Positions 7,200-56,439 of a stretch of 64,000 bases of DNA are shown here, one piece after another. This DNA comes from Mobula hypostoma (taxonomy: Eukaryota). The notes under the pieces are model-generated. The model saw nothing but the letters and a program-made list of their open reading frames with translations, did no database searches and was not told the DNA's origin. The stretch spans positions 89,096,001 to 89,160,000 of the forward strand of contig NC_086108.1 in NCBI RefSeq assembly GCF_963921235.1, in the 5' to 3' direction. The number at the start of each line of letters is the position of its first letter. The stretch's first letter is position 1. The position numbers and the translations under genes were made by a program.

Positions 7200-8314
7200 T
7201 AAGTACTAAAGACCTGTGCTGATCAACTGGCTGCAGTGTTCACTGAGATCTTGAACCTCTTGCTTCGACAGTCTGAGGTACATATCTGCTTCAAGCAAGT
7301 TTCATTTATTCTTGTGCCTAAGGAGAACGTAGTAACCTGCCTCGATGCCTATTGTCCAGTAGCACTTACATCCAGAGTGATGAAGTGTTTTGAGAGGTTG
7401 GTGTTGAAGTATATCAAACCCTGCCTGTGAAGCAACTTGGATCTGCTCCAATTTGCCTATTGGAGCAACAGGTCCACAGCAAATGCCACCTTATTGGCTC
7501 TTCACTCATGCCTGGAATATCTGGACAGCAAAAACAGCAACAAGATGCCCTTTATTGATAATAGCTCAGCATTCAATACCATCACCCCCTCAAAACTAAT
7601 CAATAAGCTTCAAGACCTTGGAGACAATACATCCTTGTGCAATTGGGTCCTTGATTTCCTCACTTGCAGACCCCAGGCAGTACAAATTGACAACAACATT
7701 GCTTCCAGAATCTCCATCAGCACAGATACACATAAGGCTGTGTGCTTAGCCCCACGCTCTACCCTTTTTATACTTTTGGCTGTGTGGCTAAGCACAGTTC
7801 CAATGCCATATTCAAATTTGCTGATGACACCACCGTCGTAGGCCAAATCAAAGGTGGTGATGATTCAGCATATAGGAGGGAGATTGAAAATCTGGCTGAG
7901 TCATGGCATAACAACAACCTCTTACTCAATGTCAGCAAGACCAAGGAGCAGATTATTGACTCAGGAGGAGGAAACCAGAGGTCCATGAGCCAGTCTACAT
8001 CAGAGGATCGGAGATGAAGGGGTCAGCAACTTTAAATTCCTCAGTGTAATCATTTCAAAGGACCTGTCCTGGGCCCAGCACTTGAGAGCAATTATGAAGA
8101 AAGCATGGCAGTGCCTCTACTTCCTTAGGAGTTTGCAAAGATTTGGTATGACATCTAAAACTCTGACAAACTTCTATAGGTGTGTGAGTGGCTGCAACAC
8201 AGCCTGGTATGGAAACACCAGAACTCTAGTGTATATGGTCCAGTCCATCTCGAGTGAAGTCCTTCCCACCATTGACCACATCCACATGAAACATTGTCGC
8301 AGAAAAGCTGCATC
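7200..8314 (+). mobile_element. Rex1/Babar LINE RT region, decayed; 3' part resumes at about 10156-10530 after a Penelope insertion
   Basis: Motifs PVALTS.VMKCFERLV, LQFAY, SSAFNTI.P.KL, KFADDTTVVG. Confidence 0.85.
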
Positions 8315-10155
8315 CCACAAACCTGCCTGTCCTGGCCGACCTATGGTCTCAGCTTGCTCCTGCCCCACCTAACTCGTTTCTGCATACCTCGACACGGTTT
8401 TATCCCCCCTTGTTCAATCCCTTCCGACCTATGTTCATGACACTTCTCACGCTCTTAAACTTTTCGATGGTTTTAAGTTCCCTGGCCCCCACTGCTTTAT
8501 TTTCACCATGGATGTCCAGTCCTTATATACTTCCATCCCCCATCAGGAAGGTCTCAAAGCTCTACGCTTCTTTTTGGATTCCAGACCTAATCAGTTCCCC
8601 TCTACCACCACTCTGCTCCGTCTAGCAGAATTAGTCCTTACTCTTAATAATTTCTCCTTTGGCTCCTCCCACTTCCTCCAAACTAAAGGTGTAGTTATGG
8701 GCACCCGTATGGGTCCTAGCTATGCCTGCCTTTTTGTTGGCTTTGTGGAACAATCTATGTTCCGTGCCTATTCTGGTATCTGTCCCCCACTTTTCCTTCG
8801 CTACATCTACGACTGCATTGGCGCTGCTTCCTGCACGCATGCAGAGCTCGTTGGTTTTATTAACTTTGCCTCCAACTTTCACCCTGCCCTCAAGTTTACC
8901 TGGTCCATTTCCGACACCTCCCTCCCCTTTCTAGATCTTTCTGTCTCTATCTCTGGAGACAGCTTATCCACTGATGTCCACTATAAGCCTACTGACTCTC
9001 ACAGCTATCTGGACTATTCCTCTTCTCACCCTGTCTCTTGCAAAAACGCCATCCCCTTCTCACAATTCCTCCGTCTCCGCCACATCTGCTCTCAGGATGA
9101 GGCTTTTCATTCTAGGACGAGGGAGATGTCTTCCTTTTTTAAAGAAAGGGGCTTCCCTTCCTCCACTATCAACTCTGCTCTTAAACGCATCTCCCCCATT
9201 TCACGTACATCTGCTCTCACTCCATCCTCCCGCCACCCCACTAGGAATAGGGTTCCCCTAGTCCTCACCTACCACCCCACCACCCTCCGGGTCCAACATA
9301 TTATTCTCCATAACTTTCACCACCTCCAATGGGATCCCACCACTAAGCACATCTTTCCCTCCCCCCCCCTGCATTCCGCAGGGATTGCTCCCTACGCAAC
9401 TCCCTTGTCCATTCGTCCCCCCCATCCCTCCCCACTGATCTCCCTCCTGGCACTTATCCGTGTAAGCGGAACAAGTGCTACACATGCCCTTACACTTCCT
9501 CCCTTACCACCATTCATGGCCCCATACAATCCTTCCAGGTGAGGCAACATCTCCCAGTGGCCACACATTTTAATTCTACATCCCATTCCCATTCTGACAC
9601 GTCTATCCATGGCCTCCTCTACTGTAAAGATGAAGCCACACTCAGGTTGGAGGAACAACACCTTATATTCCGTCTGGGTAGCCTCCAACCTGATGGCATG
9701 AACATTGACTTCTCTAACTTCTGTTAATTCCCCACCTCCCCCTTGTACTCCATCTGTTACTTATTTTTATACACACATTCTTTCTCTCACTTTCCTTTTT
9801 CTCCCTCTGTCCCTCTGAATATACCCCTTGCCCATCCTCTGGGTCCCCCCCCACCTTGTCTTTCTTCCCGGACCTCCTGTCCCATGATCCTCCCTTATCC
9901 CTTTTGCCTATCACCTGTCCAGCTCTTGGCTCCATCCCTCCCCCTCCTGTCTTCTCCTATCATTTTGGATCTCCCCCTCCCCCTCCAACTTTCAAATCCC
10001 TTACTCACTCTTCCTTCAGTTAGTCCTGACGAAGGGTCTCGGCCTGAAACGTCGACTGCACCTCTTCCTAGAGATGCTGCCTGGCCTGCTGCGTTCACCA
10101 GCAACTTTTATGTGTGTTGCTTGAATTTCCAGCATCTGCAGAATTCCTGTTGTTT
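8315..10155 (+). mobile_element. Penelope-like element copy 1 (5'-truncated, GIY-YIG core deleted)
   Basis: ORF 8508-9542 with PLE RT motifs MDVQSLYTSIP, GVVMGTRMGPSYA, RYIYD (YIDD mutated), VHYKPTDSHSYL; pyrimidine-rich 3' UTR and hammerhead. Confidence 0.95.
10021..10058 (+). ncRNA. Minimal type I hammerhead ribozyme (PLE-associated)
   Basis: TAGTC-CTGACGA-AGG GTCTCGG CCT-GAAAC-GTC^GACTG: intact core boxes, stem I TAGTC/GACTG, palindromic ACGT stem III, GUC cleavage triplet. Confidence 0.85.
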
Positions 10156-10539
10156 TCCTTCATTAGGAGATCCCACCACCCAGTTTGTGCTCTCTTCTCA
10201 CTGCTGCCATCAGGAAGAAGGCACAGGTGCCTCAGGACTCACACCACCAGGTTCAGGCACATTTAGTGCCCATCAACCATCAGGCTCTTGAATCAAAGAG
10301 GATAACTTCACTCAACTTCACTTGCCCCATCATTGAAATGTCCCCCAACCTATTGACACACTTTTAAGGACTGTTCGTCTCATGTTCTTGATATTTATTG
10401 CTTATTTATTAATTCCGATTATTTATTTCTTTTTGTATTTGGTGAGGTCTTTCATTTATTCTATTATGGATTTGTTGAGTATGCCTGCAAGAAAATGAAT
10501 CTCAAAGTTATACATAGTGACATATATAAGAAAGCATTA

Positions 10540-11749: not shown

Positions 11750-13140
11750 TTCTGGGCAAATGAAAAGTGGTGATGAATCAGCATACAGGAGGGAGATTGA
11801 AAATTTGGCTGAGAGGGTGACCAGATATCCACGAGCCAGTCCTCATCAGAGGATGAGGGATGGAGAGGGTTAGCAACTTTAAATTCCTGGGTGTCACTAT
11901 TTCATAGGGATTCATTCTGGACCCAACACACTAGTGCATTTGCGAAAAAAAACACAGTAGCGCCTCTACTTCCTTAGGAGTCTGCAGAGATTTGACGTGA
12001 CATCTAAAACTTCGACAAACTTCAATACATTTGAAGTGGAGAGTGTACTGACTGGCTGGACAGTGATAATGTAAGATGCTGCAGTCCTGTTACCTTTGCC
12101 TGGTGGAGGGATGGTTGACACAGGAGCTGTGTAGCCTTAGCTGTAGTGAGAACTAGGCCACAATCCTTGGGCTTTCCTGCTGCTGCAGACCTGGTGAAAA
12201 TGCAGAAGTGCTACAGTGTGGTGAGCTCGGCCAGGGCCTTCCCTTGCCCATAGATGCTGCCCCCCCCATGTTCAAGTGGTGCAATGACAGGCTTGATTGT
12301 GTGCGCCTGTGCACTGCTGGGAGTCTGTACCACTGTACCACTGACTGCCGGACATTGTTGCTCAGGGTCTTGGACCATATATATGTTTTTTTTTTGAGTG
12401 AATATGCTTCTTTGAATTTGTTACTCGCTTTTTTGAATGTTTGCTTGCTATTTTTGAATGTCTTCCACCTTGGCCCCAGAGGAACACCGTCTCATTCAGC
12501 TGTATCAAAGTATGGCTTGAATGATAATTAAACTTGATTTGATGTGATTTTGATTCACATCACTGCCTGGTATGGAAGCACCATTGTCTTTGAATGGAAA
12601 ATCCTACAAAAGGTTGTGGATTCAGCCCAGCACATCATGGGTAAAGCCCTCCCAACCACTGAGCAAACCTACATGAAATGCTATCGAGGGAAGGAGCATC
12701 CATCATCAGAGATCACTACCACCCAAGTCAGGCTCTCTTCTCACTTCTGCCATCTGATATAAAGTACAGGAGCCTCAAGATTTGTACCACAAGGGTCAAG
12801 AACAATTACTACCCTTCAACCATCAGGCTCTTGAATAAACAGGGATAACAACAATTACTTGCTCTATCATTGAGACATTTCCCACAACCAATGGTCTCAC
12901 TTTAAGCACGTTTTATCTGATTTTCTCAAGTTCTCATTATTTATTACTATTTATTTATATTTGCATTTGCACAGTTTGTTGTCTTCTGCACTCTGATTGA
13001 TCTTTCATTGATCCTGTTCCAGTTACTGTTCTGTGGATTTGCTGAGTATGCCCACAGGAAAATGAACTCAGGGTTGTATGTGGTGACATACACTGTATGT
13101 ACTATGATAATCAAATTTACTTGGAGCTTTGAAATTTGAT
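11750..13140 (+). mobile_element. Rex1/Babar fragments (interrupted at about 12060-12545)
   Basis: DESAYRREIENLAE and ITAWYG...LQKVVDSAQHIMG motifs; same family as 7200-8314. Confidence 0.7.
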
Positions 13141-13164
13141 TAATGCTCAGAAAGTCAAGTGGTA

Positions 13165-13977: not shown

Positions 13978-16443
13978 CAGTGGGGGTGGAAGGACTCTCC
14001 CACCTCCACCGATGACCCCTTCTCCCGTCTTCAACCCTCCTCCTCTTCATGGACAACCCCGCTCTGGTTTTCTGCTTTCTCTGGATCTCTTTATTGCTAA
14101 CTGCCGACGGAACATCAACCGTCTCGACTTCACCGCATCTTGTTCCCATTCCAACCTCACTCCTTCCGAACGCTGGGCTCTCCACTCCCTCCGCACTAAT
14201 CCTAACCTTACTATAAAACCCACCAATAAGGGGAGTGTTGTTGTAGTCTGGCGTACTAACCTCTACCTTGCTGAGGCACAGCGACAAATAGTGGATACCT
14301 CCTCTTATTTACCCCTCGATTTTGACCCCACTGAGGAGCACCAGGCCATTGTCTCCCACACCATCACCAACTTTATCCGCTCAGGGGATCTCCCATCCAC
14401 TGCTACCAACCTTATAGTTCCCACACCTCACACTTCCCGTTTCTACCTCCTACCCAAGATCCACAAACCTGCCTGTCCTGGCAGACCTATTGTCTCAGCT
14501 TGCTCCTGCCCCACTGAACTCGTTTCTGCATACCTCGACACGGTTTTATCCCCCCTTGTTCAATCCCTTCCTACCTATGTTTGTGGCACTTCTCACGCTC
14601 TTAAACTTTTCGATGATTCTAAGTTCCCTGGCCCCCACCGTTTTATTTTCACCATGGATTTCCAGTCCCTATATACTTCCATTCCCCCTCAGGAAGGTCT
14701 CAAAGCTCTACGCTTCTTTTTGGATTCCAGACCTAATCAGTTCCCCTCTACCACCACTCTGCTCCGTCTAACGGAATTAGTCCTTACTCTTAATAATTTC
14801 TCCTTTGGCTACTCCACTTCCTCCAAACTAAAGGTGTAGCTATGGGCACCCGTATGGGTCCTAGCTATGCCTGCCTTTCTGTTGGTTTTGTGGAACAATC
14901 TATGTTCTGTACCTATTCTGGTATCTGTCCCCCACTTTTCCTTCGCTACATTGACGACTGCATTGGCGCTGCTTCCTGCATGCATGCTGAGCTCGTTGAC
15001 TTTGTTAACTTTGCCTCCAACTTTCACCCTGCCTCAAGTTTACTTGGTCCATTTCCGACACCTCCCTCCCCTTTCTAGATCTTTCTGTCTCTATCTCTGG
15101 AGACAGCTTATCCACTGATGTCTACTATAAGCCTACTGACTCTCACAGCTATCTGGACTATTCCTCTTCTCACCCTGTCTCTTGCAAAAATGCCATCCCC
15201 TTCTTGCAATTCCTCCGTCTCTGCCGCATCTGCTCTCAGGATGAGGCTTTTCATTCCAGGACAAGGGAGATGTCCTCCTTTTTTAAAGAAAGGGGCTTCC
15301 CTTCTTCCACCATCAAATCTGCTCTCAAACACATCTCCCCCATTTCACGCACATCTGTTGTCACTCCATCCTCCCGCCACCCCACTAGGAATAGGGTTCT
15401 CCTGGTCCTCACCTACCACCCCACCAGCCTCCGGGTCCAACATATTATTCTCTGTAACTTCCACCACCTCCAACGGGATCCCACCACTAAGCACATCTTT
15501 CCCTCCCCCCCCCCGCTTTCCGCAGGGATCGCTCCCTTTGCGACTCCCTTGTCCATTCGTCCCCCCCATCCTTCCCCACTGATCTCCCTCCTGGCACTTA
15601 TCCTTGTAAGCGGAACAAGTGCTACACATGCCCTTACACTTTCTCCCTTACCACCATTCAGGGCCCCAGACAGTCCTTCCTGGTGAGGCGACACTTCACC
15701 TGTGAGTCGGCTGGGGTGATATACTACATCCGGTGCTCCCGATGTGGTCTTCTATATATTGGCGAGACCCGACGCAGACTGGGAGATCGTTTTGCTGAAC
15801 ACCTACGCTCTGTCCACCAGAGAAAGCAGGATCTCCCAGTGGCCACACATTTTAGTTCCACAACCCATTCCTATTCTGACATGTCTATGCACAGCCTCCT
15901 CTGCTGTAAAGATGTAGCCACACTCAGGTTGGAGGACCAACACCTTATATTCCGTCTGGGTAGCCTCCAACCTGATGGCATGAACATTGACTTCTCCAAC
16001 TTCCGCTAATGCCCCACCTCCCCCTCGTACCCCATCCATTATTTATTTTTATACACACATTCTTTCTCTCACTCTCCTTTTTCTCCCTCTGTCCCTCTCA
16101 CTATACCCCTTGCTCATCCTCTGGGTTCTCCCCCCCCCCCCACTTGTCTTTCTTCCTGGGCCTCCTGTCCCATGATCCTCTCATATCCCCTTTGCCAATC
16201 ACCTGTCCAGCTCTTGACTCCATCCCTCCCCCTCCTGTCTTCTGCTATCATTTTGGATCTCCCTCTCCCCCTCCCACTTTCAAATCTCTTACTAACTTTT
16301 CCTTCAGCTAGTCCTGACGAAGGGTCTCGGCCTGAAACGTCAACTGTACCTCTTCCTAGAGGTGCTGCCTGGTCTGCTGCGTTCACCAGCAACTTTGATG
16401 TGTGTTGCTTGAATTTCCAGCATCTGCAGAATTCCTGTTGTTT
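13978..16443 (+). mobile_element. Penelope-like element copy 2 (longest; frameshifted RT + GIY-YIG)
   Basis: ORFs 14012-14839, 14842-15078 (RYIDD), 15204-15686, 15683-16009 (VIYYIRC..CGLLYIGETRR); TSD GACCTCACAT at 13968-13977 and 16444-16453. Confidence 0.95.
16309..16346 (+). ncRNA. Minimal hammerhead ribozyme (one stem I mismatch)
   Basis: TAGTC-CTGACGA-AGGGTCTCGGCCT-GAAAC-GTC^AACTG. Confidence 0.75.
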
Positions 16444-21507: not shown

Positions 21508-22431
21508 TCAGTGGCCACTTTATTAGGAGGTCCCGAATAAAATGGCCACTGAGTATTTATAGGGTATTGGTGAGACCTAATTTAGAGTTCTGGTAAGTAG
21601 GATACTCTCCAGTGTGCACTTATAGAAGTTTTTCAAAGATTTTGTGACATGCTAAATTCAACATAAAATTCTAAGAGAGTGCGGGGGGGGGGGGGGGTTG
21701 ACATGCTTCATTTGTGATAACACTTAAGTTCTGGTCCCAGATGCCTCCAGATCTCTATGTTAATATTTCAGGTTACAGTAACACCTTCATTTAGATGTCC
21801 TGTGGTTATTTGTGATTAATGCATCCCTCTAAATTTAGCTTTACAAACAATAAAAGCAGCTCATTACTGTCTGATAACTATTCACCTAAAGCCTAGTTCC
21901 ACCCTCAGAAAGTACAGGGAGATCTCCATTCTTCTATGCAGACCAGATCAAGCTGAACCTCAATTAAATTAAGCTGCACAGTGAGAGTATCTTCAAGGAC
22001 ATTGCTGGCATATATTTTAACAAGATAAGACACAAGATATTTGCAGTCCTTCTCCACAATTGGTGAAGAATATGCAAACAACATTCAGCTGTGATATAGA
22101 AGATATACACCCTAGTCATCACTAAAATCACTTTGCAATACTCTTAAAGTCACATTCTGATAAAGAGAGGGCTCCAGGATTTTGACCCAAAAATAGTGAA
22201 ATAATGCAATATATTTCCAAATCAGGATGGTGGGTGATTTTGAAAGTACTTCTCTTTTGCTTGTTGCCTTTATCCTTTTAGGTTACAGATATTATAGGTT
22301 TATGAATGAAAGTTGATACAGAAGTATATACTAATCATAGATCATTAGACATAATTGAATGAATTATCGTGTCTTGCACTAACTTTTCATTGTAAGAGTA
22401 AACAGTTCAAACTTGACAACACTGAATGAAC

Positions 22432-22760
22432 ACGAGAAAGTCTGCAGATGCTGGAAATCCAAAGCAACACACACAAGATGCTGGAGGAACTCAGCAGGTC
22501 AGGCAGCATCCATGGAAATGAGTAAACAGCCAACGTTTCATGCTGAGACCCTTCATCAGGACGGGAAAAGAAGTGGGAAAGTCAGAATAAGAAGGTGGGG
22601 GGAGGGGAAGAGGAAGTACAAGGTGGCGAGTGTTAGGTGAGACCGAGAGAGGGAGAGTGGGTGAAGAGAAGAGCTGGGAAGTTGGTTGGTGAAAGAAATA
22701 AAGGGCTGGAGTAGGGGAAATCTGATAGGAGAGGACAGAAGACCATGAAGGGGGAGGAGA
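22432..22760 (-). mobile_element. Penelope-like 3' tail (older subfamily) with decayed hammerhead at 22527-22564
   Basis: Minus strand CCGTC-CTGATGA-AGGGTCTCAGCAT-GAAAC-GTT-GGCTG then GATGCTGCCTGACCTGCTGAGTTCCTCCAGCA. Confidence 0.8.
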
Positions 22761-24209
22761 CGGAATAAAACAACACAACTGACTTGGAACACAGATCAAA
22801 GTTGCTTGAATTTCCAGCAGCTGCAGAATTCCTCATGTTTACAACTGACTTGGGACAGTCAGACCTTTGGGTAATGCTTTATGATCATTATGCATCACAA
22901 AGACATGGCTAGATAGATAATGTGTTTTACTGTGATTTGAAATAGTAATTGCTAATGTAGGTTTAAAAATGCCATGAAGTGACAGTGATGAACAGTCAGC
23001 TCCAATAAATGATCTCTTCACTCTATCCTCTGAAAAAAATGAATTGGTTCAGATCTTGTGTTAACTTATAAGCAATGAAATGCTGACAGCCAGTATAACA
23101 CATCATTCTGAGAAATTTATAGAAAACAGATTTCACTAGAAACTATCTTCACCCAGAAAATGCCTGAACGTTTTGTTTTTTTCCCTGTGCACATCATAGG
23201 GAGCAGTAAACTGTTCGGAAAACAGCACTGTGGAACAACACAGCTGGCAGTAGGACAGAGCCCTACAATTTATGTGCTTGCCTCTGTGTCGCTGGAACAG
23301 ACTTTCAGTGAAGGCTGCAATTTTGCTGCCAGTCTTAAAGGACATGAACTGGTGGTGGTAACATTATCTGAGGAACTCATTCGATTCAAAATGCAGCAAT
23401 GTCCATGTCACATTTTTCTTTTTACGAATGGAGAAAGGGAGACCCTGAACCATCTAGGTGCCAACAAGTAGCTGGAAGCTTGATGAAACCACAATGCAAC
23501 CTCTAAACTTGGTAATTTGCTTGGCCAAGCAATTATGTTGTAGCACTTGAAAGACTGAGAATTGCAGACAAACAAGGAGGAGAGCATATTTGTTTTTCTG
23601 TAGCAAACAAAGCAGCCACAGAATCCCCATTCCTTTGGCTGTGATACTCTCCAGGCAGTGGCCAGTGAATGGCACCACTGTGCACCCTGGAAACCAATGC
23701 AGCAAGATTAACAGACACCACATTATTTATAGCAGGCTGTAAGGCGTTTCATAACTTAGTTGTTTAAATAATGAAAACAATTAAAAAGAGATGCAACAGA
23801 GCATTTGTAAATTTATTTGTTTATTGAGATACATCGCAGAACAGGCTCTTCCGGCCCTTCAAGCTGAGCCGTCCGGCAACCCCCCACTTAACCCTAGCCT
23901 AATCACAGGATAATTTGCAATGACTAATTAACCTACCAACCAGTACTCCTTTGGACTACAAGAGGAAACCGGAGCACCTGGAGAAAATCAACACTTTCCA
24001 CGGGGAGGACGCACAGACTCATTACAAATGACGTCAAAATTGAACTCTGACGTCTGACGCCCTGATCTGTAATAGCGTTGTGCTAACCGCTACGCTACCG
24101 TGAAGCCCCAAAATGGATGAACGTCAGAAACGAAATTCCTTTGCAATCTGCAACAAAAACAGAGAATACCAGATTGTAATTAATCTATGCCTGCCTTTTT
24201 GTTGGGTTT

Positions 24210-25334
24210 GTGGAACAATCTATGTTCCGTGCCTATTCTGGTATCTGTCCCCCACTTTTCCTTCGCTACATCGACGACTGCATTGGCGCTGCTTCCTGCA
24301 CGCATGCAGAACTCGTTGAATTTATTAACTTTGCCTCCAACTTTAACCCTGCCCTCAAGTTTACCTGGTCCATTTCCGACACCTCCCTCCCCTTTCTAGA
24401 TCTTTCTGTCTCTGTCTCTGGAGACAGCTTATCCACTGATGTCCACTATAAGCCTACTGACTCTCACAGCTATCTGGACTATTCCTCTTCTCACCCTGTC
24501 TCTTGCAAAAACGCCATCCCCTTCTCGCAATTCCTCCGTCTCCGCCGCATCTGCTCTCAGGATGAGGCTTTTCACTTTAGGACAAGGGAGATGTCTTCCT
24601 TTTTTAAAGAAAGGGGCTTCCCTTCCTCCACTATCAACTCTGCTCTTAAACGCATCTCCCCCATTTCACGTACATCTGCTCTCACTCCATCCTCCCGCCA
24701 CCCCACTAGGAATAGGGATCCTCTGGTCCTCACCTACCACCCCACCAGCCTCCGGGTCCAACATATTATTCTCCGTAACTTCCACCACCTCCAACGGGAT
24801 CCCACCACTAAGCACATCTTTCCCTCCCCCCCTCTCTCTGCATTCCGCAGGGATCGCTCCCTACGCAACTCCCTTGTCCATTTGTCCCCCCCATCCCTCC
24901 CCACTGATCTCCCCACTGGCACTTATCCATGTAAGCGGAACAAGTGCTACACATGCCCTTACACTTCCTCCCTTACCACCATTCAGGGCCCCAAACAGTC
25001 CTTCCAGGTGAGGCAACACTTCACCTGTGAGTCAACTGGGGTGATATACTGCGTCCGGTGCTCCCGATATGGCCTTTTATATATTGGCGCGACCCGACGC
25101 AGACTGGGAGACCGCTTTGCTGAACATCTACGCTCTGTCCGCCAGAGAAAGCAGGATCTCCCAGTGGCCACACATTTTAATTCCACATCCCATTCCCATT
25201 CTGACATGTCTATCCACGGCCTCCTCTACTGTAAAGATGAAGCCACACTCAGGTTGGAGGAACAACACCTTATATTCCGTCTGGGTAGCCTCCAACCTGA
25301 TGGCATGAACATCGACTTCTCTAACTTCCGCTAA
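24210..25334 (+). CDS. Penelope-like RT C-terminal half plus GIY-YIG endonuclease (374 aa, 5'-truncated transposon ORF)
   Basis: RYIDD, LPFLD, YKPTDSHSYL, CxxxxCxxC linker, VIYCVRC..YGLLYIG.TRRRLGDRFAEH, VATHFN, EEQHLI..LGSLQPDGMN. Confidence 0.9.
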   Translation: MEQSMFRAYSGICPPLFLRYIDDCIGAASCTHAELVEFINFASNFNPALKFTWSISDTSLPFLDLSVSVSGDSLSTDVHYKPTDSHSYLDYSSSHPVSCKNAIPFSQFLRLRRICSQDEAFHFRTREMSSFFKERGFPSSTINSALKRISPISRTSALTPSSRHPTRNRDPLVLTYHPTSLRVQHIILRNFHHLQRDPTTKHIFPSPPLSAFRRDRSLRNSLVHLSPPSLPTDLPTGTYPCKRNKCYTCPYTSSLTTIQGPKQSFQVRQHFTCESTGVIYCVRCSRYGLLYIGATRRRLGDRFAEHLRSVRQRKQDLPVATHFNSTSHSHSDMSIHGLLYCKDEATLRLEEQHLIFRLGSLQPDGMNIDFSNFR

Positions 25335-25629
25335 GGCCCCACCTCCCCCTCGTACCCCATCTGTTACTTATTTTTATGCACACATTCTTTCTCTCACTCT
25401 CCTTTTTCTCCCTCTGTCCCTCTGAATATACCTCTTGCCCAACCTCTGGGTCCCCCCCCCCACTTGTCTTTCTTCCCGGACCTCCTGTCCCATGATCCTC
25501 TCGTATCCCCTTTTGCCTATCACCTGTCCAGCTCTTGGCTCTATCCCTCCCCTTCCTGTCTTCTCCTATCATTTTGGATCTCCCCCTCCCCCTCCAACTT
25601 TCAAATCCCTTACTCACTCTTCCTTCAGT

Positions 25630-25667
25630 TAGTCCTGACGAAGGGTCTCGGCCTGAAACGTCGACCG
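25630..25667 (+). ncRNA. Minimal hammerhead ribozyme
   Basis: TAGTC-CTGACGA-AGGGTCTCGGCCT-GAAAC-GTC^GACCG. Confidence 0.8.
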
Positions 25668-27466
25668 CACCTCTTCCTACAGATGCTGCCTGGCCTGCTG
25701 CGTTCACCAGCAACTTTGATGTGTGTTGCTTGAATTTCCAGTATCTGCAGATTTCCTGTTGTTTGTAATTAATCTGCTGATTTAACTTGATTTTTCTGTT
25801 AAAGTTGACATTTGTCGAACTGCAGAAGAATTTTGCACATCTGGAAATATCTGTGGGGGAATAATCAACGTATTGGGTTAATACTCTGCGACAGAACTGG
25901 GAGTGTAAAGGGCAGAGAGCTGGTATGAAGGGATGAGCAGGAAAAGTGAGTCAGGAGTTGGAAAATGATACCGAGATCAAAGAGCTGATGGGCAAATGGA
26001 GCCAAATGGGAGAGGAAGAGTTGAGATAGCGACAGAGGGTGATTAGTGGAGAAAACAAAAGGGTTACAGACTATGGAATCTGATAAGAATGAAAAAGAAA
26101 AGGAAAAAGAGGAGTTAGGGATCTTATTTGGTTCCCTGACTCCCTGATTGTCTCCAATAGCTTGTTTTTTGATCCAGATCCCAACATTTGCAGTCACTTG
26201 CATATTGATTTTCGTAACCAATGTTTGTAGCTGAGTCTATCTAGACCTACCAAATGAGGATCCTACCTTTAACCTAACTACAAGTCTCCGCTTCATCTGG
26301 AAAGTGGTGCACATGCTGAGTTGAATCGGGAAGGATATCCCACACCACCAGGTTCAGGGACAGATATTACCCTACAAACATCAGATTCCTGAACTGGTGT
26401 GGATAACTTCACTCACCACAACTAGGAGCTGAATCCACAACCTACACTTTCAAGGCCTCTACAACTCATGTTCTCAGTATTATTTATTTTTGTTTGCATT
26501 ATTTGTCTTCCTTTGTACATTGGCTGTTTGTCAGTCTATATTTATGTATAGTTTTTCATAAATTCTAATATACATCTGTACTTAAATTCCCTCAAGACAA
26601 TGAATCTCTAGGTAATATATGGCAACATAAATGTATGTACTTTGTTAATAAATTTATTTTGACTTTGACTTTTGACTTGAATGTGATCCGTGTAGGTGTG
26701 GAAATGGACAGCATTCAGGATGTAGTTTATCTGAGAAAAGCAGTTGATTAACAAGAAAAGATAGCTGATAATAGATCCATGGAGGAATTAAGAGACAGTG
26801 AGACAATGAGGCATTATTGAGATGCTCTGATGTAAATACAAATTAAATCTTCCAAAGTTCATAGTCACTATCTCTACCTTCTTGAATAAGGAGGGGATGT
26901 TGTAGTGTGCCGTTATCGTGTTAAAATGAGGAATTCCAGAATAGTTATTACGCAAGGCAATGTCAAAATAAATTTATTATCAAGGTGTACATGTGACCAC
27001 ATATTACCTTGAGATTCATTTTCTTGCAGGCATTTACAGGAAAATGAAGGAATACAACAGAATTTATGCAATCAATATACAAGTAAAGACTGACAAAGAA
27101 CAAATGTGCAAAAGAAGACAAATTGTTCAAAAAATAATACTGAGAACATGAGTCCTTGTAGGTTGTGGAATCAAGTCAGGGTTAAGGTTAGTGATGTTAT
27201 CCATGCTGATTCAGGAGTCTGACAGTTGAAGGGTAATAACTATTCCTGAACTTGGAGGTGTGGGTCCTATACCATACCATACAGGATCTATGTCCTGTAC
27301 GTCCTGCCTGATAGTGGTAGCAGAAAAGTGCAAGGGATGGATGATGGATGTTGCTTTTTTGTGGCAGTGCTCCTTGTTGATGTGATCAATTGTGGGAAGG
27401 GCTCTGCCTCTGATAAACTACGCTGTATCATCACTTTCTGCTGACTTTTCCATTCCATATTCTGTC

Positions 27467-27915
27467 TAGGTAGCCCCCAAAATAATGGCATGTACATCAA
27501 TTTTTCTAACTTCTGTTAATTTCTCCACCCCCTCTTTCTCGCTCTTTCCGCTCCCTATTCTGGCTCCCTGCTTACACCTTCTCTTTTCCTCACCTGCTTT
27601 AATATCAGTCTGGTGCCCCCCCCCTTCCCTTTCTCCCACAGTCCACTCTCCTCTCTTATCAGATTCCTCCTTCTTCAGCCCTTTACCTTTTCCACCTATC
27701 ATCACCCCCTCCTCCATCTACCTACCTTCCCCCTCACCTGGTTTCACCTATCAACTACCAGCTCATATTTCTTTCCTTCCCCCAAATTTCTTACTCTGGC
27801 TTTTTTTCTTCCCTTTCCAGTCCTGATGAATGGTCTTGCCCCAAACCATTGAATGATTATTCTGCTCCATAGATGCTGCCTGACCTGATGAGTTTGTCAG
27901 CTTTTTTGCATGTTA
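27467..27915 (+). mobile_element. Old Penelope-like 3' end with decayed hammerhead (about 27818-27855)
   Basis: LGSPQ..GMYINFSNF end of ORF, pyrimidine tract, CAGTCCTGATGAA, GATGCTGCCTGACCTG. Confidence 0.75.
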
Positions 27916-28170
27916 CTCCAAACATCATATGATTGATGCTTTTAAAGTAAGAATTGTATGAGATAGTTAGTAAGGCTTTATTTATGAACAAAACATAAAC
28001 TATAATTCTATAACCAAATTCATCATTATTGTTATTCTCCATGTGAAATGCTGTGAACTTCATTTTCTGAAAAATATAAGTGTCCTGTGTTGTGAAATTC
28101 TCTTCCAGTAAACCAGATATTTGGATAGAACCTTCTCCATTTCTATAACAAAAAATCAATTTACATAAAA

Positions 28171-28892: not shown

Positions 28893-29635
28893 TCACTTCA
28901 CCTGTGAGTGGGCTGGGGTGATATAATGCGTCTGGTGCTCCCGATGTGGCCTTCTATATATTGGCGAGACCTGATGCAGACTGGGAGACCGCTTTGCTGA
29001 ACACCTATGCTCTGTCCGCCAGAGAAAGCAGGATCTCCCAGTGGCCACACATTTTAATTCCACATCCTATTCCCATTCTGACATGTCTATCTGTGGCCTC
29101 CTCTACTGTAGAGATGTAGCCACACTCAGGTTGGAGGAACAACACCCTGTATTCTGTCTGGGTAGCCTCCAACCTGATGGCATAAACATCGACTTCTCTA
29201 ACTTCTGCTAATGCCCCACTTCCCCCTTGTACCCCATCTGTTATTTATTTTTATACACACATTCTTTCTCTCACTCTCCTTTTTCTCCCTCTGTCCCTCT
29301 CCCTCTGTCCTTGCCCATCCTCTGGTTCCCCCCCCACCTTGTCTTTCTCCCTAGGCCTCCTGTCCCATGATCCCCTCATATCTCTTTTGCCTATCACCTG
29401 TCCAGCTCTTGGCTCTATCCCTCCCCCTCCTGTCTTCTCCTATCATTTTGGATCTCCCCCTCCCCCTCCCACTTTCAAATCTTACTAACTCTTCCTTCAG
29501 TTAGTCCTGACGAAGGGTCTTGGCCTGAAACGTCGACTGTACCTCTTCCTAGAGATGCTGCCTGGCCTGCTGCGTTCACCAGCAACTTTGATGTGTGTTG
29601 CTTGAATTTCCAGCATCTACAGAATCCTCGTGTGT
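28893..29635 (+). mobile_element. Penelope-like element copy 4 (GIY-YIG region plus 3' end)
   Basis: Near-identical to 25015-25764. Confidence 0.9.
29502..29539 (+). ncRNA. Minimal hammerhead ribozyme
   Basis: TAGTC-CTGACGA-AGGGTCTTGGCCT-GAAAC-GTC^GACTG. Confidence 0.82.
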
Positions 29636-31149
29636 GTCCTACTGCAGAAGTGTTTTGGCTTTGTCTAAAGATGAGAAGTAATTTTGTCCAACTTAGGAAA
29701 GTTGTGTCAGCCAATTGTAACTTTCTGCCCAGTGGAAGATTTGGGAGAGCTGGGCAGGATCAGGTTTCTGAAGGAGAGTATTCTAGTTTGGGGTCTTTTG
29801 GCAGGAGCTGCGGTACAGGGCACAAATGGAGATGCAGCAGAATGTCTTTGGAAGGTGAGTCCCTGTTGCAAGAAGTGCTTTGTGCTGATGAATGGCTCCA
29901 AGGAGGAAGGGCCAATACTCCTGAGAAATCCAATTCATTTGAGGTGGTCTTTGAGGGACGTTCGCGCAGACCATGGGTCCAGCCTGTGAGTGAAGCAATA
30001 CAGCCCCAACAACTCCAAAACTGAGCTGCAAATTTCAGTGCACATTCAGGCTGGATTAACTGTAATGGGCCCTTTTACCTTTTTCTTTCTCTGTTAAATG
30101 TTTGATAAAGTTGGAAATTGGTAAATATACTTTCTTTATAATTTCATGCTGGTGCACAATCTGTCATTTCTGGGCTATGGAGAACTGTGTATGTCAGTAT
30201 TTACACCGCATTCACTTAAATCAAGGTTTTGTTGAATCGGAACATCCTGATGTTTCTATCTGGTTGAACCCCAAATCATACCGACCCTGGGCGTTCATTG
30301 CTTATGAAAGGTGGCTTTCTCACAGCTGAGTCACGTGGCTGTTGGCAGAGTTGGCTAATGAGGTAAGTTGGTGCATGAGCAACTCACAACTTGGTGTATG
30401 AGCCCCAGTGAGAGGATTGCTCTCCCAGCAGGGAATTTTTACCCTTGCATTTCAACTCTACCCACAAGGTTTTAATATCTTCTTATCATATCTTATTTCT
30501 TTCTAAGGCTTTGATTTCATTTTCAACAACAAATCAACCCCGCACCTTCTGTCCATTCAATATGATGATCATCTTTGGGTGTTAAGCTCCCAGCTGTGAA
30601 CATTTTTCAAAACATTACACTGTGATGCCAGAATGTCATATCTGCCACCTTCTACAAGATTATTTACCTTTTATCATATGCTGTGTGCATTCAAATATGA
30701 CACTACCTGTCCTGTATTCACCACCGTTCTTTTCAATTCTGTCTCCATGCTGCCTGAAATTAAATTCTCATTCTTGTCTTATTCTTTATTCTGGAGATTT
30801 CAGTAACCTCTCTTGCACTCTTTTCTTTCTATTAGTCCATACTTAATATCAACTCCTGGCTTCGGCTTCTATTTTCAAAGATAAAGATCTTTAAAGATTA
30901 GCTTTATTTGTCATGTGTATATTGAAACATATAATGAAATGTATCATTTGTTTCTCATCAAGTCCATAAGGATTATTCTGAATGTCGCTACATTTCTGGA
31001 GCTAATATAGCATGCCTATATCTTATTAACCCTAAACGTAAGTCTTTAGAATGTGGGAGAAAACTGGAGCACCTGGAACAAACTCACATGGTCACAAGGA
31101 GAATATACAGACTCCTTACAGACAGCAACAGGATTCGAACCCAGAGTTG

Positions 31150-37535: not shown

Positions 37536-38730
37536 AGGAAGAGGCTTTTCATTCTAGAACAAAGGAGATGTCCTCCTTTTTCAAAGAAAGAGGCATCCCC
37601 TCCTCTACCATCAACACTGCCCTCAACTGCATCTCTTCCATTTCACACACATCTGATCTGTTCTTACGCCATCTTCCTGCCACCCTACCGGGGTAGGATT
37701 CCTCTTGTCCTCGCCTACCACGCCACCAGCCTCCGCTCCAGCACATAATTCTCTGAAACTTCTGCCACCTCCAACTGGATCCTACCACCAAACACAACAT
37801 CCTCACCAACCTCCCCCCACCCCCCCAAGACTTCCTGCTTTCGGCAGGGATCACTCCCTACGTGTCTCCCTTGTCCATTCCTCCCTCCCCACTGATCTCC
37901 CTCCTGGCTCTTATCCTTGCAAGCGGAACAAGTGCTTCACCTCCCCATACACCTCCTCCCTCGCTACAGTTCAGGGCCCCAAACAGTCCTTCCAGGTGAG
38001 GCAACACTTCACCTCTGAGTCTGTTGGGGTCATATACTGTGTTCAGTGCTCCCAGTGTGGCCTCCTGTATATCGGTGAGAACGACGTAGATTGGGAGACT
38101 GCTTCACCAAGCATCTATGCTCCATCTGCCAGAACAACCAGGACCTCCCAATGGTCTCCCATTTTAATTCCACTTCCCATTCCGATATGTCAATCCATGG
38201 CCTCCTTCACTGCTGGGATAAGGCCACACTTAGCCTGGAGGAAGAACACTTTATATTCCATTTGGGTAGCCTCCAACCTAATGGTATGAATATCAATTTT
38301 TCAAATTTCCAGTAATGCCTCTACCAACCTTCCCCCCCCCCCACTTCACCATTAACGGTCCCCTTGTCCCTCTCTCATGTTATCTCCTTGCCCACCAATT
38401 GCCTCCCTTTAGTGCTCTTCACCACACCTCTCCCTTCTTTCTTCCAAGGCCTTCTGTTTCTTTCAACAATCAACTTCCTAGCTCTTTGCTTCATCCCTCC
38501 CCCTCCAAGTTTCACCTATCATTTGGCATTTCTCTCTCCCCTCCCCCCACCCCGCCCCCCCCCCCCACCTTTCAAAGCTATTCCTCATCTTTTTTCCCTC
38601 CACTCTTGCCAAAGGGTTTTGGCCTGAAATATTGACTGTACCTTCTTCCTTAGATGCTTCCTGAGTTCCTTCAGCATCTTGTGTGTGTGTTGCCTGGATT
38701 TCCAGCATTTGCAGACTTTCTTTTGTTTGT
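37536..38730 (+). mobile_element. Penelope-like element, older subfamily (C-terminal region plus tail, decayed hammerhead at about 38600-38640)
   Basis: EEAFHSRTKEMSSFFKERG; VIYCVQCSQCGLLYIGE; GSLQPNGMNINFSNF. Confidence 0.9.
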
Positions 38731-43515: not shown

Positions 43516-44429
43516 GAAGGACTGGGTCCATAACATTGTCTGTATTCTTTTTTATAGATGCTGCCTGGTCTGCTGATCTTCTTCAGCATTTTGTGTGTGT
43601 TGCTTGGAAAGCATTCTGTCTGATGCATGAGGACTTGATATGTCAACTGCTCTGCACGTGACTGCAATGAACTGCAGAGAATTGTGGCCACCACTGAGTA
43701 AATCACGGGAACCGGCCTCTCCTCCATTGACTTGATCTAAATCTCTTGCTGCCTCCGTAAAGCAGCCAGCATAAATCAAATTCATCACCTATCTGGCCAT
43801 TCTCTCTAATCCCCTTTGCCATCAGGCAGAAGATAGGAAAGCATGTACCATCAGTCTTAAGGGTAGCTTCTATCCCATTATTATCAGACTCCTGAATGGA
43901 CACCTTATACTATAAGGTGGACTCTTGGCCTCACAATCTACCCCATTAAGACCTGCACTTTTTTGGTACCTTTTCCACTTTATTCCACATTATTTATCTA
44001 CCTATATATTTATTTATATTTTGAGATATAACATTGTAACAGGCTCTGTTGGCCCAAAGAACCTACCACTCCAAATTATACCCCTATAAACCTATAGGTG
44101 TACCCCTATACCCAATTAACCTACTAACCTGTATGTCTTTGGAATGTGGAAGGCAGCTGAAGCACCCGGAAGAAACCCACATGCTCAGGGGTTGAATTGA
44201 ACTTAGGTCACAGTCGCTGTAACAGCTTTATGCTAAATGCTATGCTCTGCAACTGCACCATATTGTTTTACCGTAATGCACTGTGTGATCTGTACCTCAG
44301 CATCCTTCATCACTTTACGCTTACACGCCACACCTCAAACCCACACTTACACTGTCACAGACCTACTGCGACTCCATATGCATCCAGCTGCAGATTCTTA
44401 CAGGCTGTGTAAGAACATCGTGTCATTTG

Positions 44430-45590
44430 GGAGGCTGAGGGGTTGTTTGATAGGATATATAGGAAGGTGGGGGCACCCAAGTTGCAGGAGGCAGGTAACT
44501 GGCTGACTATCTGGAGAGGGAAAGGACATGGGCATTCAGTGCAGAGTATCCCTTTGGTTGTTCCCCTCAATAACAAGTGTACCGCTTTGAACACTGGTGA
44601 GGCTGGGGGGTGGTGTGGGGTGACATTTGAGAGGAAAGCCACAGAGGTCAGGTCTCTGGCAGTGACTCTGGCTCTGTGGCTCAGAAGGGAAGGGGGAAGA
44701 CAGCGGAATAGTGGTGATGGGGGAATCAATGATTAAGGGAATGGACAGTTGGCTTTGGAGGCAAGAGATTCCAGGATGATGTGTTGCCTCCGAGTGCCAG
44801 GGTTAGGGACATCTTGGATCGATTCCACATTATTCTTAAGTGGGAGAGTAAGCAGTCAGATGTTGCGGTTCATTTTGGCCCAAAATGTTGACTGTACTTT
44901 TTTCCATAGATACTGCCTGGCCTGCTGAGTTCCTCCAGCATTTTGTGTGTGTTGCTCGGATTTCCTGCATCTGCAGATTTTCTCTTGTTCAGGGAACTTC
45001 GCTTTTCAAGACATATTGAGGTCCTAGTTAAGAAGAAGGTGGTATAGGCAGGAAGGAACAAATGAGGTACTTGAGGAGTATAAGAAATGCAGAGAACACT
45101 TAAAAAGGAAATCAGGATAGCTAAAAGAAGGCATAAGATTTCTTTTGTGAATAGAAAAAAGGAACAGTCAAGGTGAAGGAAAGTCGCAAGAGCTTCTACA
45201 GATATATTCAGATCAAAAGGATTGCAAGGGACAAAACTGGTCCTCTGGAAAATCACAGTAGTCATCTATGCATGGACCCAAGTGAGATGGGTGAGATCTT
45301 AAACGAAATGCTTGCATCTGTATTTACTCATGAGACAGACACAGAGTCTATATATGTGAGGCAACATGGCAGTGAGGTCATGTGCCCTAGACAGATTACA
45401 GATAAGGAAATGTTTGCTGTTTCAGCAAATTACGGTGAATAAATCCCCCAGGTCTGACATGATGCTCCATCAGACCCTATAGGAGGCTAGTGCTGAAATT
45501 GCAGGGGTTCTAGCATAGACACCTAAAATGTCTTTAGCAACAGGTGAGATATCAGAGGATTGGTGGATAGATAAAATTGTTCTGTTGTTT
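44430..45590 (+). mobile_element. CR1 fragments (ORF1 esterase and ORF2 linker) with a Penelope tail insert at about 44873-44990
   Basis: WLTIWRGKG..VQSIPLVVPLNNK; KSFYRYIQIKRIARDKTGPL..EMGEILNE. Confidence 0.75.
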
Positions 45591-49129: not shown

Positions 49130-50110
49130 GCTGAGGACCACAAACTGCTGGAGGTAATCAATAAGTCAAGCACCATCTGTGGTGATAGTTGACATTTCGG
49201 GGTGAGGCCCTGCATCAGGTCTGAGTGTGTAGAGGGGTGATAGCCAGCACAAAGAGATAAGAGAGAGGAGTGAAGAAACAGCTGGCAGGTGATTGGTGGA
49301 ACCAGAAGAGTAATGGGCTGATGGAACCACTTGAAAGAGAGCACAGGGAACCCAAAGTGTGTGTGCAGGCAGATGGAACGACTTGAGGAAGAGAAACAAA
49401 ACCAGGTGATAGGGACACTGATGAAAGGGATTTGGAAGAAACTATGTGGATCTGAAGAAGAGAGGAAGGAGCACAGGGAGTGTGGTTCACTTGTAATTCA
49501 ATGTTCATACTATTAGACTGTGGGCTACCCAGATGGAATATGATGAGCTGTTCTTCGAGTTTGCACTTGAACTCATCCTGACGGTGCAGAAGATTGAGAA
49601 TAGAGAGGTTGGTATGGGACTTGGAAGGAAAATTGGAATGACATACAACCAGGTCCTCAAAGTGGCTTGTGAACAGAGTGCAGGTGTTTTGCAAAATGAT
49701 CCTCATCTTCGCTTGGTTTCACGGACATAGGAGAAACCACGTCAAGAACACCATGCATTAGACGAGGTTGGAAGAGGTGTAAGAGGATATTTCCCTCAAG
49801 TTTGTCTCCACTTCTTCCCTTCCAGCCTCTGTCTGTATCACCATATTCTCCTTCCCCTACCTGGCTCCAACATCACACTCCTCACTCATAATCCACCAGC
49901 CCCTGCCTCACCTTTCCCTCTCACCTTCTTTATACTACCTCCTCGGGCTAGGAGAAAGGCTGTCTCCTTTCTACACCCTGAGTCCTGAGGCAGGGTCTCA
50001 ATCCAAAATGTTGACTAACCATTCCTTTTCCCTCATGGATCTTGTTCAGTTCCTTCATCAGTTTTTCTGCCCCCTCCTCAGCTGCTTGTAGTATCTGCAG
50101 TCTCCTCTAT
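49130..50110. mobile_element. Back-to-back old Penelope-like 3' fragments (minus about 49130-49790, plus about 49790-50110)
   Basis: Minus ORF ..KLEEQLIIFHLGSPQSNSMNI; hammerhead-like AGAC-CTGATGC-AGGGCCTCACCCC-GAAAT-GTC (minus, about 49187-49225) and AGTC-CTGAGGC...AAAATGTTGACT (plus, about 49981-50016). Confidence 0.7.
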
Positions 50111-53180: not shown

Positions 53181-55287
53181 TGCTGGGTAACATAACTGGG
53201 GGAAATATACTGTACCTAATTCACAATCACTGACACTGAGCCAAGGCCCCACCCCCAAGAGGTCGGTGCAACCTAATGACGCCACTACGCAGAACCCCCC
53301 AGCAAGTCATTGGGTATATTTCATCCAGAAGTTGATAGGTTCTTGATTCGTGAAGATGGCAAAGGTTATGGGAGAAGGTAGAATAATGGGGTTGAGAGGG
53401 ATAATAAATCAGCCATAATCGAATAGCAGAGCAGACCTGATGGGTTGAATGGCCTATTTCTGCTCCTAGAGCCTTATGGATTGCTTTTACACAGCAAACT
53501 ATCCATCAACACCGAAGAAATAAATGACTAGACTATCTGCTTCTGGGATGGTTGAAGAAGTAGGCCAGAGGATTGAGAGAATTTTTCTGATCTTCAGATG
53601 GTTCCATGGTATCAGGGGAGGGAGACATGGGCATGATTTAATGCAAGGGAGTAACCAACAATGGAGCTCTCCTTCAGTTCACTGCAGATGTATCAGCTTC
53701 AAACATGTGCTCAAGGAGATGTATTCTGACTGAATATATACAATGTTTTAGCTCAAAAAACAGAAAATTAAGCTTTAAACAGGAACCTCAGCTTATCTTG
53801 AACCCACAAATGCTACCTCACTACTATTTTAAATTTCTAAATTTTCCACTATTTATTTAAATATATATATAATATGTACATATTTACAGTAATTCTGTTT
53901 TCTTTTTCTCTCTGTTATCATGTATTGCATTGCACAAACTTCATGAAATATGCCAATGATATTAAGCCTGATTCTGATTTTCCAACTTCACAGTCTACTT
54001 TGTTGAGATCTTACACAAATTGTCTTCCTGTGCTTCACTTTCTCTAGAGCTGTTGCACTTTATTCTGCATTCTGTTATCATTTTACCTTGTAACTACCTC
54101 AATTCACTGTGTAATGAAATGATCTGTATGAACAGTATGCAAAAGGAGATTATCACTGTACTTCAGTGTATGTGACAATAACGAGCCAATTCCAATTCCA
54201 CTTCCAATTTCAATACTCTTTGATGTTTCAGGTAATTATTCTGCCCTTAAGCCTCTTCCAAATATCTGTTACTTTACAGCGTTACTCCTCTCCTTTCTTT
54301 CTACCCTGTCATTGTTCTTTTCTTCTCTTTTTTTGGATCTAATAACTTGTTATTTCTCTAGGTTTTCCTAATTAACCTGTATCTTTTATTTTGTTTCTCC
54401 ACAGATGCTGATTGACATTCGGAGCATTTTCAGCAATTTCTGTTTCCATTTCTTCAGGATTAATCTGAAGGCACTTTGTACCATTCAATCCCTTCATGTC
54501 CTGCTGAGACCCCAACAGAAAAATATTGGGAATTCAAGAACTTCTTTCCTTGGTCCTCAGTGGTAAGGAGGAGCAATGTCTGAAGCCTGTCTGAAGCTGA
54601 ACGCTTCCCAGCAATGTGGGATACATCCTGCTGCAATGGAATTTGAGAATATTCCTGAGTTAGCTAAAGGAGGAAACAGCAGATGAAACACTGAGTGTGA
54701 CTGAGGAGAGGCAAATGAAGTTGGCAAAACAGGTAGTCCGGATCTTTAGATACAACTTAGGGCTTTCTGAGTTTGTTCAGGACATGGATTTGGGCTCACA
54801 TGGAGCACAGCTCAAACACAGCATTTCATCCTGCTATTTGTAATCTTGGTAAAATGCCTATCCAGTTTGAGGTATTTATATCTGACTTGATTGTAACCAG
54901 AACAAAAACATGCAAGTACTCTACAGATATTATATTCTCCAGCACGTCCTAATTAGACATAATATACTCTGATTCAGTTCTAATCATTGTGCACTCCAAT
55001 TTATTCTGATTTGTTTTATCTTGATTTTCTGGTGACATTATATTGAGAGATCCAGGGAAGGGATTTTTCATTTTAGATAGCGACTTGAACACATGAACAG
55101 ATAAATATTTCATGTGACATGGCAGAGGGATCCATTAAAATAGTAAATCTCTTATTAGATTCTTGCTAAATGAACAGTTTGTCAGACATTTTTTCTGAGT
55201 TTCTTCCCCTAATGATTGAGCCCCTCCCCAAAGGCAATATCTGCAGTGCATAAGAAATTCTGCTGGTGCTGTAAATCTTGAGTGCGT

Positions 55288-55288
<1 letters not shown>

Positions 55289-55338
<50 letters not shown>
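55289..55338 (+). repeat. (CA)25 microsatellite
   Basis: Direct reading. Confidence 0.98.
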
Positions 55339-55345
<7 letters not shown>

Positions 55346-56439
55346 GGAAGAACTCAGCAAATCAAGCAACGTTTATGGAGAAGAATAAACAGTTGGTGTT
55401 TTGGTCTGGGACTCTCCATCAAGTCCTAAGGAAGGATCACAGCCCGAAGTGCCCACTGCTTATTCCTCCCCATAGACGCTGCTTGACCTGCTGAGTTCCT
55501 CTATCATTTTGTGTATGTTGTATAATGCACAGCAGGCCACAACAAAAAAACTTTGAAATACTCAGCAGGTCAGGGAGCGGCTGTGGAAATAACAAAAGCA
55601 GTGTTTCAGGTGAATGACCTTTCAGCAGAACCCAGGAAGCAGGCAACTAGATGCTGCAGAATAGCGAAGAAGCAGAGAGGACAGAGAAAGAAAGGTGTGA
55701 TAAGATGGAGAAAAGGAAAGTTTATATGGCAGAGTGGTGGGGAGCCAAGTGAAAGTGGGTGGTGAAGACATTGAGTGAATGACAGAAAGTAAATCTAGAG
55801 ATGTTATAATTAGGAAGATGCAAAATATTATATATTATAAACAGGTGGCAGATCAACTGATGATCCCACTGGTGATAGCACAGGACAGTTAACATCTTAG
55901 TCCACGTGTATTTTTAACTCTATGGGAAATTATGGAAGTCATCGAATCATAGAGCTATACAGCATGGAAACAGGCCCTTCGGCCCAACTCATCCATGCTA
56001 ACCAAGATGTCAATGGGAGCTAGTCCCATTTGCTTGTACTTGGTCTATATCCATCTAAACCTGTTCTATCCATAAATGTTTCCCATGTGTCCACCTCTAC
56101 AGCTTCATCTGGCAAGTGTGGGTGGAAAATAAAACCAATGAATGCTGGAAATATGAGATAGGAGTCTAAAACTGCCAATTATGTGAAAGTGTTGATTGTA
56201 CTGAGCCAGAATAGGTGTAACTCACCCCTCTGGGAGAAGAGATGTTGTTCTAATAACCTTAGCTATTTTAACCATCCTAGATTCCTGAGGGGTAACTGAT
56301 AAACATTTTTTCTTTGACAGTGGGATGGTCTGCTCCAAGTGACATGGTAGGCTGCCTTCAGATCCTGTTCATTCCTGTCAAAATGGTTATGATTCGCCCT
56401 GCCTCTCACGCTAACAACTAGGGCTGTATCTTGCTGCAA

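Follow-up and report, generated by a model that had tools for sequence, protein, structure and literature searches.

Minimal hammerhead ribozymes (min-HHRs) in the pseudo-LTRs of metazoan Penelope-like elements (PLEs) were described by Cervera and de la Peña (2014; PMC4209133), and the original prediction for the locus studied here had already assigned its motif to this known class. Among the 56 rows of the alignment in that paper, none comes from a cartilaginous fish. In the Poseidon element of Anolis carolinensis (PAc; Frangieh et al. 2024, PMC11167929), cleavage is reported to need protein, uncut RNA to be the main template, and ribozyme mutants to leave insertion unaffected, while RNA-seq gave no reads with an end at the cut. 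The tail was traced to a pair of internal RT start sites that follow the hammerhead. Non-LTR retrozymes also carry PLE-derived type I hammerheads, and they are reported in one chondrichthyan among 31 vertebrates (bioRxiv 10.64898/2026.07.22.740005). These retrozymes consist of non-coding units in tandem, each with its own hammerhead, whereas the young copies described here are dispersed and retain remnants of an RT/GIY-YIG ORF.

The window analysed in this study is a stretch of 64,000 nt from Mobula hypostoma (contig NC_086108.1, positions 89,096,001 to 89,160,000, forward strand), and its features are listed in Table 1. Four young copies (A to D), with pieces 92-96% identical, belong to one Penelope-like family; their start points lie near residues 230 (copy B), 375, 511 and 785 of an 889-aa relative. 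All four are 5'-truncated and have a single 3' motif; no full-length master with two repeats was found within the window, nor a 5' repeat upstream of the longest copy, B (12000-14600 examined). Copy A has an internal deletion of ~138 nt at 9549, in the endonuclease region kept in B and C, and interrupts an older LINE fragment whose two parts lie at about 7430-8314 and 10156-10413. No TSD of at least 7 bp was found for copy D, and none fitting the ends of A or D. The family is abundant, as 9585 and 5371 contigs aligned to 501 nt of it in two sequencing runs; the four runs used in this study consist of contigs of guessed or unknown type, which carry no information on molecule ends, strand or level, and among the positions listed there was none at which many molecules start or stop.

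Table 1 Features of the window (positions counted from its first nucleotide; ages are given as young, older or old)
Feature	Position	Strand	Remarks
Copy A, 5'-truncated Neptune-type PLE	8315..10155	+	C-terminal part of RT, GIY-YIG, 3' repeat
Min-HHR of copy A	10021..10058	+	core pattern scan, descriptor, folding, covariation
Stem I, copy A	10021-25 with 10054-58	+	
First box, copy A	10026-32	+	unpaired A at 10033
Stem II, copy A	10034-37 with 10042-45	+	G·U at 10.1-11.1
GAAA, copy A	10046-49	+	
Palindromic stem III ACGU, copy A	10049-52	+	no loop
C17, copy A	10053	+	predicted cut 10053/10054
Post-cut segment, copy A	10054..10155	+	conserved block 10073-10121
First 3' end, copy A	10120/10121	+	optional tail of 35 nt to 10155
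Copy B, longest, 5'-truncated, frameshifted	13978..16443	+	starts near residue 230 of 889-aa relative
TSD of copy B, 11 bp	13967-13977/16443-16453		
Min-HHR of copy B	16309..16346	+	core intact; stem I pair adjoining cut broken
Older-family 3' end	22429..22584	-	decayed hammerhead, stem II broken
Mini-insertion of young family, 53 nt, no ribozyme	22788..22840	+	inverted 19 nt (22788-22806) plus tail
TSD of mini-insertion, 13 bp	22775-22787/22841-22853		
Copy C, 5'-truncated, 382-aa open frame	24185..25765	+	RT motif, CX4CX2C linker, GIY-YIG
TSD of copy C, 13 bp	24174-24186/25763-25775		
Min-HHR of copy C	25630..25667	+	core intact; one stem I pair lost via apparently private change at 25666
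Older decayed 3' end	27807..27925	+	homology ends near first (tail-less) 3' end
Copy D, short, 5'-truncated	28894..29636	+	
Min-HHR of copy D	29502..29539	+	core and stems intact; change in loop II only
Older PLE copy E	37536..38728	+	decayed hammerhead
Older decayed 3' end	43516..43612	+	truncated within ribozyme, tail-less
Older 3' end	44875..44989	+	truncated within stem II, with tail
Old decayed 3' end with hammerhead	49139..49227	-	downstream of PLE ORF remnant near 49495-49556
Old decayed hammerhead	49979..50040	+	
Divergent old 3' ends	55251..55525	55438-55251 minus, 55407-55525 plus	overlap at ribozyme start
Old decayed 3' end with hammerhead	55539..55632	-	

The protein remnants place the carrier among the PLEs with an endonuclease. 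Pfam matches to RVT_1 (E 0.0016) and GIY-YIG (E 0.0002-0.0003) were both below the curated cut-offs, and the frames of copies B and C showed 45-57% identity to relatives of 889-924 aa along their length, with lower identity in the frameshifted C-terminal pieces of copy A. Among 3158 candidates, 93 long protein relatives were found at E<=0.001. The IDD motif of the RT and a CX4CX2C linker (C249, C254, C257) were invariant in 16 aligned sequences, and a CX2-5CxxC linker between RT and EN marks the Neptune and Nematis clades according to PMC8557442. Judged from these sequence features, the carrier is probably a Neptune-type PLE, with RT followed by GIY-YIG in a single ORF.

Hammerheads had been predicted at 10021, 16309, 25630 and 29502, about 100 nt before the 3' end of the element. 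The core pattern was recovered 5 nt further on at all four sites (10026, 16314, 25635 and 29507, plus strand), ~300 nt past the stop codon, and each of the four copies ends 102 nt beyond its predicted cut. Six core matches were found in the window against 1.21 expected, a number reached in none of 100 shuffles. The strict min-HHR descriptor, which requires stems I and II and a palindromic stem III besides the core, found three sites in the window, in copies A, C and D, whereas 100 shuffles gave no site; copy B fails because its first stem I pair is broken. The motifs had been called intact, and this holds for the core, as all 12 positions of the CUGANGA, GAAA and UH boxes are kept in the four young copies, but only in part for stem I, which is whole (5 bp) in A and D and has one mismatch each in B and C. 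The change in copy C looks private, since ~97% of the contig depth at 25666 in runs X1 and X5 has the pairing base. Two registers of stem II had been offered. When copy A was folded alone, the pairs of GGGU/GCCU had probabilities of 0.87-0.97 and those of AGG/CCU only 0.02, so that the latter was rejected; the accepted register makes the 10.1-11.1 pair a G·U. Stem III (the 15.1-16.1 stretch) is the loopless palindrome ACGU in all four copies, as predicted, and therefore it can form only between two molecules or copies.

The 38 nt of the motif do not fold more stably than shuffled sequences (z -1.24), and exact DNA patterns had no match in metagenome or viral contigs. The Rfam search of the window returned no hammerhead family at the gathering threshold or at E<=10, which is not counted against the motif because the Rfam models appear to need a real stem III.

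The closest row in the alignment of PMC4209133 is the Neptune element of Acropora digitifera. The min-HHRs of that paper and the copies in the window share the type I topology, CUGANGA followed by one unpaired base, GAAA, a 4-bp stem II with a 4-nt loop, a palindromic stem III with zero loop, a short stem I, a pyrimidine-rich upstream flank and a single 3' motif on 5'-truncated copies. They differ at one pair, which is G10.1·U11.1 here and G-C in the published consensus, although 8 of the 56 rows share the G·U.

The intact cores of the four young copies are uninformative on selection, because with private differences of only 4.1% four untouched cores are expected at P about 0.13. Selection on the inserted copies was considered as an explanation and not adopted, as neutral drift gives the same result at that probability. 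More information came from the older copies of the window. The ribozyme block was identical to copy A at 27, 30, 26 and 26 of 36 positions in copies E, F, H and I, respectively; the corresponding values were 25, 19, 15 and 4 of 40 upstream, where the interval of copy I is covered only in part, and 8, 7, 8 and 5 of 15 in the spacer behind the ribozyme. Copies G and J, truncated inside the ribozyme, kept 20 and 18 of 36. The downstream block of these older copies was conserved about as well as the ribozyme (27-38 of 49), as would be expected if the pseudo-LTR kept the region mainly for protein binding or as a promoter element and the likeness to a hammerhead were incidental.

The related elements speak against such an incidental likeness. 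With the strict descriptor, 80 loci encoding protein relatives gave 16 motifs in sense downstream of the ORF match, none in antisense downstream, none in sense upstream and 4 in antisense upstream, although a motif lay within 800 nt in only 13 of the 41 related loci with enough downstream DNA. The four antisense motifs upstream (loci L005, L024, L047 and L051) correspond to an inverted pseudo-LTR arrangement. When the same loci were scanned for the core only, with no pairing imposed, 18 sense rows were found within 400 nt past the ORF; they represent 17 distinct cores, one row being a second, longer reading of locus L038. Each of three stem I pairs was formed in 15 of the 18 rows, against 8-11 of 24 control cores, the stem II pairs in 16-18 rows against 9-11 controls, and the palindromic stem III in 15 rows against 4 controls. 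In the 17 relatives and the four window copies together, 85.7% of cells pair (97.6% in stem II), and 9 of the 11 pairs vary on both sides, including all 5 of stem I, while the core is invariant in these 21 sequences. The covariation score was 0.549, compared with 0.220 after shuffling (reached in 0 of 500 shuffles) and at most 0.132 when the structure was slid; the shuffle test is inflated by the kinship of the sequences, and the slide and position controls agree with it.

Two further observations concern the ribozyme in other families. Contigs of other families join the alignment at 25631 (55, 23 and 8 contigs in three runs, among the matches listed) and leave it at 25665 (50, 10 and 1 contigs, likewise among those listed); these positions are the two edges of the ribozyme. 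Locus L024, with 42% protein identity, bears the exact motif published for the Acropora Neptune element (PMC4209133). The prediction could have failed in the comparison of core with flank; the motif held up in it both among the older copies of the window and among the related elements. The minimal type I hammerhead proposed for the PLE is borne out; it belongs to the terminal repeat of the element, and its fold is conserved across families. The substitution pattern indicates that the hammerhead fold is selected at the family level. Stem I pairs that all vary on both sides around an invariant core form a hammerhead pattern, and rescue of C3G by G8C in PAc showed real catalysis within the class (PMC11167929). 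An incidental likeness in a protein-binding or promoter element is therefore extremely improbable.

About a dozen intact or decayed motifs had been expected in the window. An nhmmer profile was built from 10 window copies, which match it by construction. Of its 21 hits at E<=1, 16 were at E<=0.01, and 14 of these 16 overlap the ribozyme block wholly or in part; a single hit (E 0.67) came from the reversed window. The estimate of the number was close in this sense, but only four motifs in the window keep all 12 core bases. The copy at 55539-55632 faces the divergent pair at 55251-55525, and one of these copies has an expanded GT run in a GU-rich stretch. Apart from the PLE copies, two short inverted repeats that are related to each other, MITE-like hairpins in form, were seen at 1983-2049 and 21500-21560; they match Rfam miRNA models below the threshold. 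A young short repeat (87-92% identity) occurs at 32957-33066, 33785-33968 and 45588-45764, two of its copies forming an inverted pair ~0.7 kb apart.

The elements of this family end at two points. Among the matches listed, heterogeneous flanks begin at 25765 in 30 contigs of run X1 and 37 of X5, and also at 25729 and 25730 in 23 and 31 contigs of X1 (agreement 0.40-0.43). The inner end thus lies 67-68 nt and the outer end 102-103 nt past the cut, ~35 nt apart, and the older copies H, I and J lose homology near the inner end. Inverted pieces were found at 22788-22806 and 55251-55525. In the mini-insertion the orientation switches at the inner 3' end, within a short inverted repeat. In PAc the hammerhead is likewise followed by two RT starts, which bound a tail of 30-40 nt, and inserted copies are likewise continuous across the cut site (PMC11167929). 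By analogy with PAc, the two ends seen here delimit an optional PLE tail, and the post-cut segment may be taken to hold the RT start sites. The two elements also differ. PAc belongs to the Poseidon clade; stem II marks the beginning of its ORF, and counted from there the cut is 26 nt and the RT start 111-118 nt in. The element in the window is Neptune-type; as all its copies are incomplete, its ORF start was not located. Inserted copies read through the cut site, so that the template RNA would have been uncut or re-ligated. The 102 nt behind the cut showed no consensus fold over 10 copies and no two-sided change in 23 pairs over 6 copies, and their stability z ranged from -1.70 to +0.22. Isolated contigs of low depth in runs X1 and X5 return from 25682-25729 to 25631-25643 and could be short retrozyme-like tandem hammerhead units; tandem retrozymes were not called from these joints, as single contigs are too thin.

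Based on these results, the motif is very probably the min-HHR of the pseudo-LTR of a young Neptune-type PLE, which would act by dimer cleavage in a master element and most likely cuts nothing in the single copies. The present analysis shows the anatomy, the two 3' ends and the covariation between families; the mechanism follows publications on the class. A transcript of a full-length or tandem master would carry two copies of the motif, the four-base palindromes of which could pair into stem III while the stem I arms swap partners. Cleavage would follow C17, slowly or weakly and probably only with the protein of the element bound, and may serve to trim or circularise the precursor RNA. Reverse transcription would then begin at either of the two points downstream of the cut, on RNA continuous across the site. 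Starts downstream of the motif mean that each new copy carries the ribozyme ~100 nt from its end. The four window copies, all 5'-truncated, are dead-on-arrival single motifs that decay neutrally and most likely cut nothing.

The original prediction went further and proposed a dispersed self-cleaving system that could cut host read-through transcripts. Pairing between dispersed sense copies, in trans or along one long host transcript, might lead to genome-wide cleavage of host RNA; the very high abundance of the family (the 9585 and 5371 contigs mentioned above) would suit this, as would the position of all four young copies on the same strand, 6.3, 9.3 and 3.9 kb apart. However, four copies on one strand are expected in 1 of 8 cases by chance. 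The motifs are single, on 5'-truncated copies 3.9-9.3 kb from each other, with no tandem partner and no 5' repeat found upstream of the longest; two of the four have lesions in stem I, the decay fits neutral drift, and the core is buried in the folds predicted. Pfam revealed no host exon in the 343 of 438 frames of at least 55 aa that remain after the frames of PLE copies are left out, a scan that short exons would escape. The five hits in these frames were two RVT_1, one endonuclease, ALKBH8_N and Spc7; ALKBH8_N lies inside a LINE fragment, and the weak Spc7 hit (E 0.0008) reads LINE-like by eye. Moreover, earlier studies report that published motifs cut weakly as adjacent dimers (PMC4209133), that one of 9 Xenopus retrozyme dimers cut (bioRxiv 10.64898/2026.07.22.740005) and that PAc needs the protein of its element (PMC11167929). 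Cleavage of host RNA by these copies is thus highly improbable, and this part of the prediction was not upheld.

A different question is whether the ribozyme of the young subfamily still works well. In a context of 157 nt, the probability of the hammerhead stems was near zero in copies A, C and D, where upstream hairpins or alternative pairings prevail. At 10007-10037 and 25616-25646 the folding model pairs the pyrimidine tract in front of the motif with the first core box and with the 5' half of stem II, a possible off-state hairpin. The modelled active dimer was 18.8-24.2 kcal/mol above the best dimer fold, compared with 7.4-28.6 in the 17 relatives, every one of which also has such a gap; these nearest-neighbour energies ignore the tertiary core. 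The 10.1-11.1 pair was G·U in all four window copies and G-C in 16 of the 17 relatives. At 25654 the C form made up 19%, 18%, 41% and 6% of the contig depth in the four runs, and this minority indicates that U at 11.1 is a trait of the subfamily, not the decay of a single copy. In PMC4209133, G10.1-C11.1 is the consensus of >80% of min-HHRs and is non-universal; the G·U of the 8 rows was counted by eye, and these include S. mansoni (1), whose family gave low dimer cleavage. The available sections of PMC2837043 and PMC544870 hold no rate data on the effect of the 10.1-11.1 pair.

These data raise the possibility that the ribozyme of the young subfamily is attenuated or dead, and that the subfamily spread regardless or by cutting less, with the motif as a passenger. 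The lesions would be the G·U at 10.1-11.1 and a C at position 7, which lets the core pair with the cleavage triplet. Both the contrast between the window copies and the relatives at this pair and the low share of the C form in the runs agree with attenuation, as do the predicted folds that hide the core. In the same direction point the unaffected insertion of PAc with mutated ribozymes and the PLE clades that thrive without the motif (PMC8557442). Nevertheless, G·U is tolerated in 8 of the 56 published motifs, S. mansoni (1) among them, all 12 core bases are kept in the four copies, and each relative too has a competing fold more stable than its active dimer. On balance a dead or attenuated ribozyme is unlikely, and min-HHR cleavage in a master remains the preferred account. 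A more specific version is decidedly doubtful, namely that an abundant young subfamily fixed a weakened ribozyme, with G10.1·U11.1 and the core in a competing hairpin, and outgrew its G-C sisters. In its bolder form, ribozyme strength would have been lowered in this lineage, since pairs of strong dispersed copies would cleave host pre-mRNA. If the weakened ribozyme were true, it would provide a natural experiment on whether PLE hammerheads help or parasitise the element.

In the literature searched on Penelope in shark, Chondrichthyes and elasmobranch, no description of the ribozyme of this Mobula PLE family was found. The motif adds one more host lineage and one more family to a hammerhead class known since 2014. 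The tail with two start sites, defined biochemically in a Poseidon element, is here visible as a genomic signature in a Neptune-type family. Proof that dispersed copies cleave host RNAs would raise the import of the motif. With the role of PLE hammerheads still unsettled, a difference in cleavage and in age between the natural G·U and G-C subfamilies would raise it as well.
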